The notes below the pieces were generated by a model. The model ran no database searches. It saw only the letters and a list, made by a program, of their open reading frames with translations, and was not told where the DNA came from. The position numbers and the translations under genes are program-made. Positions 1,300 to 32,873 of a stretch of 64,000 bases of DNA are shown here, one piece after another (the first letter of the stretch is position 1; each line of letters opens with the position of its first letter). The stretch comes from Promethearchaeota archaeon (GTDB taxonomy: Archaea; Asgardarchaeota; Lokiarchaeia; Sigyniarchaeales; SOKP01), in assembly GCA_019894975.1 (NCBI GenBank), contig JAGXNO010000001.1, positions 32,001 through 96,000 on the forward strand, given 5' to 3'.

Positions 1300-2527
1300 A
1301 TGGATGTGATAAAGATTACAGATCAGAATGAGTTTACTACAAAATATATTATTGAAGTTAAATTTTCAATTAAAGGAGTTGTTGAAAAAAGCGATATAGT
1401 CGGCGCCATTTTCGGTCAAAGATAAAAGTCAATAGCCATATCGGCAAATCGGCTAAACTGAAGGTCTTCTTTTAGATTTAGATTTAAGAGATCTACAAAA
1501 ATCTGGACGAATTGGACGGATAGAAGTAGATAATATTTCTAAAGAGGGTGTCTCAGAAGGAAATATTAAAATTCCATCCTCATTAACTAGAAAGGAGACC
1601 GCACTCTTGGCGGCGACAGTCGAAACAGTCTCTCGCGTTGGCCCGTGCGAGGCTGAAATTACCCTAATTGAAATTAGAGATGTTCGTGAAACCAAACGTA
1701 AGAAAATTATTGAAAGAGCTGCCCAACTTCTAAAGCAATGGGACCAAAAGTCTTTAGAACAAAGTGAAATTGAAGAGAAGATGGATAAAGATATTAAACT
1801 CGGAGAAATAATATCTTGGGGTCCTGATAAACTCCCTGCAGGTCCAGATGTGGAAAAAAATCCAGATCTCATTATCGTAGAAGGAAGAGCCGACGTTTTA
1901 AATTTATTACGAATAGGTATTAAAAATACAATTGCAGTTCAAGGAACTCAAGTACCTAAATCAGTAATAAGTTTAGGAAAAAAGAAGAAGACAGTAACAT
2001 GTTTTCTTGATGGGGATCGAGGAGGTACTATTATTTTAAATGAATTATTGCAATTGTTAAAAATTGACTTTGTTGCTAGAGCTCCTGACGGGCATGAGGT
2101 TGAAGAGCTAACGAGAAAACAAATGATTAAAGCACTGCAAAACAAAAGATCCGCGAAAGATTTAAGAGATATGACGTCTGGATCTACGGAAGGAAAAAAA
2201 TATAATACTAAGGAAGAAACACTTCAAAAGTACCTCAAGAAAGTAAAAATAAAAGATGAAGCAATAATTGTGGAAGCAATTAATACTATTGAAACAGGGC
2301 ACAGTATTGGGTTTAACAAGAGCCTTAATAAGTTATTTGATTTTCCCGTTGGGGGTATTTTTGAAAAAATTAGAGATTTTAAAGATACTCAATATTTAAT
2401 TATCGATGGAGTTTTAACAAAAAGACTTTTATCACTGTCTATAAACATGAAAATCAAGTTTATTGCATGCAAAAATAAGGAAGATGAATTAACAATTCCA
2501 GAGCATTTAGTTGTCTTTTATTTTTAA
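1300..2527 (+). CDS. dnaG: Archaeal DnaG (TOPRIM, exosome-associated); exons 1300-1419 and 1457-2527, 396 aa when joined
   Basis: Exon 1 MDVIK...[26 protein letters not shown]; exon 2 [24 protein letters not shown]...IIVEGRADV...DGDRGG. The track ORF 1607..2527 is only the distal part of exon 2. Confidence 0.92.
1420..1456 (+). other. 37-nt candidate BHB-type intron in dnaG mRNA
   Basis: Removal restores frame and the motif GAIFGQ-TEGLL; central helix GGUC(1414-17)/GGCU(1451-54) followed on each strand by AA|A; TAA stops in both exon frames inside the insert. Confidence 0.85.
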
Positions 2528-28477: not shown

Positions 28478-28614
28478 GCCCACATAGTGTAGCCCGGTCC
28501 AGCATTTTTTTGCTGTATTCCAGCGAAAAGCTAAATCGGGACTGTCAAGCTCTCTCCACGAAGGCGGAGCACAGAGCTCCTGCGACGCGGGTTCAAATCC
28601 CGCTGTGGGCGCCA
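28478..28614 (+). tRNA. tRNA-Asp(GTC) with two introns (28506-28535 at 25/26; 28548-28576 at 37/38), CCA encoded
   Basis: Acceptor GCCCACA/TGTGGGC; strict BHB CTGT/ACAG at 37/38; relaxed BHB CAGC/GCTA with a 9-bp intron stem. Confidence 0.92.
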
Positions 28615-31905: not shown

Positions 31906-32873
31906 TTATTATTCACATCCTCTTCCATTATTTCGATAAATATATCCTGTAATGAAGTTTCGGGCTGACGAAATTCTCGTAAAATTACGTTATTATCGAT
32001 AATCATTTTAGGAATAGCCTTCTGAAGCATTTCGATATCTTTTGGTAATATATGTATTTTTTTATCATTCTCGTCAATCCAGGTATTAGTAATAAAATCC
32101 TTTTCCTTTAATTGTTGAATTACTTTTTCATTTGAACTTGTGTCTAAAATAATGATGATGCGATCTTCTTTGATAGAATGCATCTTTTTAATATTCTTAA
32201 TAGTGTCTGCTAAAACTATTTTTCCTTTGTTAATCATCGTGACGTTTACGCACATTTGTTCTATTTCAGATAATATGTGACTTGAAACAAAAACACTCAC
32301 TTCTTTTGATAATGTTTTAATATCTCCTATAATCTTTTTACGTCCTATAGGATCTAAATTCGATGTTGGTTCATCCAATATTAATATTTCGGGTTCATGT
32401 ATAAGAGCTGCTGCAATACCGATTCGTTGTTTCATTCCTTCTGAATATTTTTCAATTCTTCTTTCTCGAGCTCCTAATAATTCTAATTTCTCTAGTAATT
32501 CAAGAGTTTTTTTCTTAGCTTCACTTCTTCTCAATCCACTTAGTTCTCCTACATAATTTAAATATTGTTCTCCACTCATATTATCATAAAAAGCGGGATC
32601 CTGAGGTAAAAATCCTATTATTCGGCGAGCTCTTAAAGAACCAGCATCTTGGCCTTTAATACTTGCTTTACCATTTGTAATTGAGATTGCTCCTATTAAC
32701 ATATTGATTGTTGAAGTTTTCCCTGCACCGTTTGGACCTAAAAAACCATGAACTCCTGGTTCCATTGATATATCAATTTTGTTAACAGCTTTTACACTGG
32801 TTTCTCCTTTTCCATAAATTTTAGTTAGTTGTTGGGTCCATATTTCTGGTGTTGAAGAGTTTTCTTTAAGCAT
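31902..32873 (-). CDS. ABC transporter ATP-binding protein
   Basis: GPNGAGKT, variant signature YSEGMKQR, LDEPT, SSH. Confidence 0.95.
   Translation of the reverse strand: MLKENSSTPEIWTQQLTKIYGKGETSVKAVNKIDISMEPGVHGFLGPNGAGKTSTINMLIGAISITNGKASIKGQDAGSLRARRIIGFLPQDPAFYDNMSGEQYLNYVGELSGLRRSEAKKKTLELLEKLELLGARERRIEKYSEGMKQRIGIAAALIHEPEILILDEPTSNLDPIGRKKIIGDIKTLSKEVSVFVSSHILSEIEQMCVNVTMINKGKIVLADTIKNIKKMHSIKEDRIIIILDTSSNEKVIQQLKEKDFITNTWIDENDKKIHILPKDIEMLQKAIPKMIIDNNVILREFRQPETSLQDIFIEIMEEDVNNK

Follow-up and report, generated by a model that had tools for sequence, protein, structure and literature searches.

The closest described counterpart of the locus reported here is the bulge-helix-bulge (BHB) intron in the cbf5 pre-mRNA of Crenarchaeota, known from Aeropyrum, Sulfolobales and Desulfurococcales (PMC2738675). 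In the literature that we searched, cbf5 of Crenarchaeota is the only archaeal protein-coding gene with a reported BHB intron. Archaeal tRNA genes form the second point of reference, with introns at non-canonical positions whose relaxed BHB motifs are cut by the tRNA splicing endonuclease EndA in its (alpha-beta)2 form (PMC5829648). Non-canonical tRNA introns are abundant in the tRNA genes of Asgard archaea, and the papers on Asgard introns treat tRNA genes only (PMC11291895; bioRxiv 10.64898/2026.10.13.758758). Neither for Asgard mRNAs nor for dnaG did our searches return a report of BHB introns, an absence that is no proof that none has been published.

Three further systems are relevant to a short interruption of a coding sequence. 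In eukaryotes, the HAC1/XBP1 mRNAs contain an intron that is cut by Ire1 at small stem-loops, after which the exons are rejoined by a tRNA-type ligase, RtcB in metazoa. In the bypassing of phage T4 gene 60, the RNA remains uncut and matched take-off and landing codons are needed. Finally, the self-splicing introns of group I and group II possess a ribozyme core of several hundred nucleotides.

Here, we analysed a window of 64,000 nt, which is the whole stretch from position 32,001 to 96,000 on the forward strand of contig JAGXNO010000001.1 (GCA_019894975.1), from a Promethearchaeota archaeon. Near its start lies a dnaG gene in two pieces, listed here, as are all features below, in window coordinates:

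1300-1419, + strand: dnaG exon 1, 40 codons, ending in ..VGAIFGQ and covering positions 1-26 of the NCBIfam DnaG profile
1420-1456, + strand: putative intron of 37 nt, in which each exon frame meets a TAA, that of exon 1 at 1423 and that of exon 2 at 1454
1457-2527, + strand: dnaG exon 2, 356 codons plus a stop codon (2525-2527), with the Toprim domain

The NCBIfam DnaG profile NF003108 matches exon 1 over positions 1-26 and exon 2 over positions 27-282 (E = 4.9e-108 for exon 2), and the Toprim domain is detected by Pfam in the exon 2 piece. As profile positions 26 and 27 are contiguous across the exons, the split of dnaG is exact. The open reading frame of exon 1 runs on past 1419 into AGA TAA, exon 2 sits in another frame, stop codons occupy 1423-1425 in the first frame and 1454-1456 in the second, and the 37-nt length also shifts the frame. 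A reading of the same DNA made from the letters alone, to which we refer as the sequence-only reading, had described the position and size of the insert, its stops in both frames and the change of frame, and all of these match the sequence. Removal of the insert is required for a full-length DnaG because of the in-frame TAA at 1423 and the frame shift, and joining 1419 to 1457 yields the sequence found both in intronless relatives and in one RNA contig (X19 record 7, described below). The sequence-only reading had also named an intact second dnaG as evidence that would count against splicing; none is present in the assembly (3.9 Mb in 175 contigs, 95% complete), in which dnaG is single-copy. 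Furthermore, no other copies of the intron sequence were found in the organism's own genome, and thus it is not a repeated or mobile element.

The starts of these genes deserve a separate remark. The window dnaG begins ATG GAT GTG; in most relatives, as compared through L002, L003, L022 and others, this ATG is missing and the gene seems to begin two codons further on, at the GTG. Public gene calls of intron-bearing dnaG (P0005, P0009, P0003 and P0004) use internal TTG or GTG starts and are 306-351 residues long, and the N-terminal exon is therefore missing from databases, as can be seen by comparison with 1607-2527 of the window. Given this truncation, such genes escape annotation pipelines or are wrongly labelled as broken.

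The boundaries of the insert can be drawn as a BHB motif, composed of the following elements:

1408-1413, + strand: possible outer exon helix h, 5' strand AUUUUC, pairing with 1460-1465
1414-1417, + strand: central 4-bp helix H, exon strand GGUC, pairing with 1451-1454
1418-1420, + strand: 5' bulge AA|A, exactly 3 unpaired bases between H and the intron helix, predicted cut 1419/1420
1421-1423, + strand: intron closing helix h', 5' strand GAU, pairing with AUC 1448-1450
1435-1445, + strand: inner intron hairpin, GCC 1435-1437, loop, GGC 1443-1445; 96% of cells pair (alignment A1, helix 4)
1448-1450, + strand: intron closing helix h', 3' strand AUC, pairing with GAU 1421-1423
1451-1454, + strand: central helix H, intron strand GGCU, pairing with GGUC 1414-1417
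1455-1459, + strand: 3' bulge AA|ACU, of 5 nt provided that helix h forms, predicted cut 1456/1457
1460-1465, + strand: possible outer exon helix h, 3' strand GAAGGU, pairing with AUUUUC 1408-1413

The central helix GGUC/GGCU is made up of two G-C pairs and two G-U pairs, with no further pair possible at its ends, and AA|A follows on both of its strands. On the intron side, the pairs G1421-C1450, A1422-U1449 and U1423-A1448 leave a 5' bulge of exactly 3 nt, whereas on the 3' side another two bases after AA|A stay unpaired, and C1458, lying opposite C1413, precludes a strict 3-nt bulge there. The window motif is thus a relaxed BHB (HBh'-like) rather than the strict form. The exon-side helix AUUUUC/GAAGGU can form, and 89% of its cells pair in alignment A1, with the bases of both strands being fixed by coding. 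All of the pairings proposed in the sequence-only reading are present (GGUC/GGCU, GAU/AUC, AUUUUC/GAAGGU with a 5-nt bulge, and AA|A on both strands), and its proposed cuts, placed on each strand 2 nt past the central helix, restore DnaG exactly, as the profile continuity 26|27 confirms. Free-energy folding disfavours the BHB model, at -3.8 kcal/mol versus -12.6 kcal/mol for the minimum free-energy structure, and when seven loci and the window segment were folded the BHB was not returned, the helices being too short for folding to decide. By itself, the window sequence is suggestive only.

Comparison with related genomes carries the argument further. We searched exon 2 against 154 genomes of the same order, 144 of which gave a dnaG match, and wherever the open frame of dnaG was shortened we fetched the 5' region as well. 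Of these 144 genomes, 52, belonging to eight genera of the window's family and to one other family, have 29-43 nt inserted at the codon boundary used in the window, FGQ|TEG (site A). The relatives without an insert that we examined read exactly ..GGNCAA|ACNGAA.. at this boundary. Every one of the 52 inserts introduces a stop in the exon 1 frame and 48 of them also shift the frame. Their ends are conserved, and the middle is variable yet always a hairpin, with h' extending into a hairpin of 6-9 bp in the short-type relatives. The window's own insert is found again, with one base changed, in an independent ENA DNA contig (L095).

To describe the pairing across these loci we used alignment A1, which holds 45 distinct insert-bearing sequences. 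All cells (100%) of the central helix pair in it, and its third pair, which joins the wobble base of a Gly codon to an intron base, occurs as CG in 28 sequences, AU in 7, UG in 6, GC in 2 and GU in 2. The observed covariation score was reached by none of 500 shuffles, and sliding the partner columns lowers pairing from 94% to 24-52%. Helix h' pairs in 93% of cells, its first pair being G-C in 45 of 45 sequences, its second AU or GU in 43 and its third paired in 38. As a control, the same Gly codon position varies freely in the 26 examined relatives without a site A insert, with GGA as the commonest codon. Between intron-bearing species, the dN/dS of exon 2 is 0.08-0.18 at a dS of 0.2-2.1, so that this exon evolves under purifying selection. 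The comparative patterns show selection acting on an RNA helix that exon 1 forms with the 3' end of the insert, the helix that would position the two cuts of EndA. Recurrence at the same site in 52 genomes, together with the covarying central helix, excludes chance, for which a single sequence would have been insufficient. An alignment of Asgard dnaG loci had been put forward as a check in the sequence-only reading, and it did reveal same-position inserts with a covarying central helix.

Inserts in dnaG extend beyond this order and beyond this site. In a search of 400 genomes of the phylum, using as query a junction-spanning peptide from an intronless relative, split dnaG matches appeared in three more families. 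At site A, the inserts of G269 (31 nt, with a perfect GGUC/GACC), G268 (34 nt, with one G.A mismatch in the central helix) and G399 (32 nt, with GGCC/GGUU) are all of unrelated sequence. At site B (SDI|VGA), 19 nt upstream of site A, hairpin inserts of 30-31 nt occur in G053 (L089), G101 (L045), G107 (L051) and G145 (L043), with the central helices AGAU/GUUU, AGAU/GUCU and AGAU/AUCU, and these four genomes are without a site A insert. At site C (TEGL|L, phase 1), G253 (L100) and G262 (L099) carry an insert of about 28 nt with GCCU/GGGU and the bulges AC|A and AA|U, the removal of which restores TEGLLGEDLDL; a split match at dnaG was obtained in all 18 matching genomes of the G253/G262 family. 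That one cut rule holds at three sites within about 35 nt is far better explained by a common structure-measuring nuclease than by any sequence-specific process.

The genome encodes candidates for both enzymatic steps. Two genes carry an EndA domain (PF01974, over the cut-off; own genome C22 and C55), one of 202 aa with the Tyr/His/Lys catalytic pattern and one of 200 aa without it, and judged by their sequences the two paralogues apparently form an alpha/beta pair; RtcB is encoded as well. (Alpha-beta)2 EndA is one of two EndA types able to cut non-canonical motifs (PMC5829648), and most Asgard genomes have been reported to contain two EndA paralogues (bioRxiv 10.64898/2026.10.13.758758).

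On this basis, we consider it very likely that 1420-1456 is an EndA-type (BHB) spliced mRNA intron within the coding sequence of dnaG, and dnaG of this archaeon very probably needs RNA splicing. In the pre-mRNA, GGUC at the exon 1 end and GGCU at the intron end would pair as the 4-bp central helix, flanked on one side by the AAA bulge and the short intron helix GAU/AUC and on the other by the relaxed bulge. EndA, apparently of the two-subunit alpha/beta type, would cut 2 nt after the central helix, at 1419|1420 and 1456|1457, and RtcB would ligate the exons into a frame of 396 codons (40 + 356) reading ..GAIFGQ-TEGLL... The intron would be released, probably as a circle, and unspliced RNA would yield only a 41-residue peptide. 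We infer that EndA and RtcB are the enzymes acting on dnaG RNA, and the splicing step might have a regulatory role.

The proposed mechanism is the same as that for cbf5, and the interest of dnaG lies in its lineage, in the gene itself and in the multiplicity of sites. The cbf5 and dnaG introns are alike in being short, non-spliceosomal and located in a protein-coding sequence, with a BHB-like structure for the tRNA splicing endonuclease; both are patchily present and precisely absent among related species, and both occur in hosts with a heteromeric EndA. Unlike in cbf5, the experimental proof of splicing in dnaG consists of one RNA contig. The host gene also differs, as does the lineage, which is Loki-type Asgard and not Crenarchaeota (the source names of close homologues are Promethearchaeota or Lokiarchaeota), and the dnaG inserts of Asgard lineages occupy at least three sites in a stretch of about 35 nt. 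With archaeal tRNA introns the insert shares the 4-bp helix, the 3-nt bulge, the intron hairpin, the contribution of half of the motif by the exon, a similar size range and an enzyme set that is encoded in this genome. Unlike in tRNA genes, however, the exon half is protein-constrained coding sequence, and removal restores a reading frame and not a cloverleaf.

We also looked for the spliced form in RNA, comparing four runs that are all recorded as metatranscriptomic, two of which (X14 and X17) are flagged as probably DNA, while X19 is polyA RNA-seq of a sediment. X19 record 7 is a contig of 151 nt, the first 19 letters of which correspond to 1399-1417 and the rest to 1455-1586; because AA precedes both cuts, 1417 joined to 1455 equals the 1419|1457 junction. 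This contig carries the junction TTCGGTCAA|ACTGAAGGT, without the insert, and encodes an intact VGAIFGQTEGLLL.., so that the junction predicted in the sequence-only reading is found in one RNA-seq contig. Its depth is 2.7, and it extends 19-21 nt on the exon 1 side, against a threshold of 31 letters for a bridging record. The contigs of X14, X17 and X18 lie inside exon 2 only, none crosses the junction, and they give no information on spliced or unspliced forms.

The origin of the X19 contig matters for its interpretation. It is 96.7% identical to the window, compared with 84-86% to the three closest relatives without a site A insert, and four of its five differences from the window (GAA AAT GCA at 1529-1537) are common to L095, the ENA DNA contig that has both the 37-nt insert and this rare GAA AAT GCA variant. 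In the protein database, all homologues with at least 88% identity are truncated gene calls, that is, interrupted genes, and full-length homologues reach at most 86% identity. The simplest reading of these sequence matches is that the contig represents a spliced transcript from an intron-bearing strain. Less probably, it derives from an intronless strain very close to the window species.

Among other accounts of the insert itself, one keeps its removal from RNA and assigns it to a different activity, either another endonuclease with a ligase or a self-cleaving activity that recognizes the hairpin. The non-canonical 3' bulge of 5 nt speaks for such a process, as does the fact that the BHB is not the thermodynamically preferred fold. 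We nevertheless judge it very unlikely, as the conserved features are precisely those that EndA measures (the 4-bp helix, the 3-nt bulge and the cuts 2 nt after the helix), and they are kept across unrelated insert sequences and three sites. Self-splicing is further opposed by the size of the inserts, since 29-43 nt cannot accommodate a group I or group II intron, and by the Rfam search, which finds only tRNAs in the window; the 37-nt size and the lack of any Rfam ribozyme family in the window rule out a group I or group II intron.

Slightly less probable still is a two-part DnaG, in which a peptide of 41 residues would form the N terminus and a separate C-terminal protein would be initiated within exon 2. 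A TTG at 1607 does open an ORF of 306 residues, but the break would fall inside the most conserved N-terminal motif, GAIFGQ|TEGLL, and no conserved start codon exists near the start of exon 2, the window having none for 50 codons. Precise intronless alleles in sister species and the joined RNA form in the X19 contig also contradict a two-part protein.

That the ribosome crosses the insert by recoding, through a frameshift or bypassing of the T4 gene 60 type, with the RNA left uncut, is highly improbable. The resemblance to gene 60 is superficial: in both, a coding sequence is interrupted by a short stretch that is not translated and contains a stop codon, and here too the stop comes right after the take-off point, with an adjoining hairpin. 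Unlike in gene 60, matched take-off and landing codons are absent, as CAA 1417-1419 faces TAA 1454-1456 and landing from GGU to GGC would be followed by a stop. Furthermore, the insert lengths fall into all three frame classes and every insert contains stops, and thus no single frameshift works; bypassing would not require an exon base to covary with the 3' end of the insert, and an RNA contig without the insert exists (X19).

Finally, we give almost no weight to a broken dnaG, whether a pseudogene or an assembly or sequencing artefact, even though public gene callers return only truncated products of 306-351 residues, because an independent ENA assembly and 51 other species share the insert, the gene is single-copy, and both exons are otherwise intact with a dN/dS of about 0.1 over a dS of up to 2. 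Assembly error and a decaying copy had also been named by the sequence-only reading as findings that would refute an intron: the first is answered by the insert's presence in independent assemblies and 51 other species, and the second is contradicted by the exon dN/dS of about 0.1.

Other genes of the window and genome show interruptions of their own. The eS30 gene (own genome C108, L096 about 1442-1530) has a 31-nt hairpin insert after ..SLTKAGK, in which CUGG/CUAG forms the central helix and an AAA bulge lies on either side, which makes it a second BHB-type insert in a coding gene of this genome. A match to the cdhC family (L097, own genome C131:18906-20342, minus strand) contains two TGA codons in frame, which may reflect another insert or selenocysteine. 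Within the window, a tRNA gene of 134 nt at 28478-28611 (+) was missed by ARAGORN and found by Rfam (33.9 bits). It has 64 nt in the anticodon-arm region, where the model has 17, and a separate 14-nt insertion, amounting to about 60 extra bases, and from this layout it probably carries two introns. The sequence-only reading had spoken of relaxed-BHB tRNA introns in the window, and of these we confirmed only the one intron-bearing tRNA at 28478-28611. We also scanned the own genome de novo for BHB motifs that, once taken out, would connect two open frames, and frame-restoring matches proved no commoner than frame-breaking controls at any stringency; dnaG ranked fourth, and the background was too high for introns to be counted.

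The multiple dnaG sites and the second interrupted gene, eS30, in this genome form the basis for a broader proposal, which we regard as unlikely. In it, dnaG would be one case of a wider layer of endonuclease-spliced mRNA introns in Asgard archaea, with many genes per genome and several sites per gene, in which splicing by EndA and RtcB would go beyond housekeeping and gate the production of core proteins, such as the exosome partner DnaG, in a manner like that of HAC1/XBP1. The parallel with HAC1/XBP1 lies in an endonuclease-cut mRNA intron, a tRNA-type ligase and a change of reading frame; the two differ in the nuclease, which for HAC1/XBP1 is Ire1, not EndA/TSEN, and HAC1/XBP1 splicing is known to be stress-regulated. 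The functional link between the exosome and the tRNA-splicing enzymes that the sequence-only reading had drawn is speculation.

With another well-supported case besides cbf5, tRNA-type splicing of mRNA would no longer look like a crenarchaeal oddity. The case presented here concerns a conserved, single-copy information-processing gene of Asgard archaea, into which inserts have entered at three or more sites in different lineages. Its wider relevance is to the origin, near the root of eukaryotes, of intron-bearing coding genes and of non-spliceosomal mRNA splicing, and the wider layer, should it exist, would concern the Asgard archaea, the closest prokaryotic relatives of eukaryotes.
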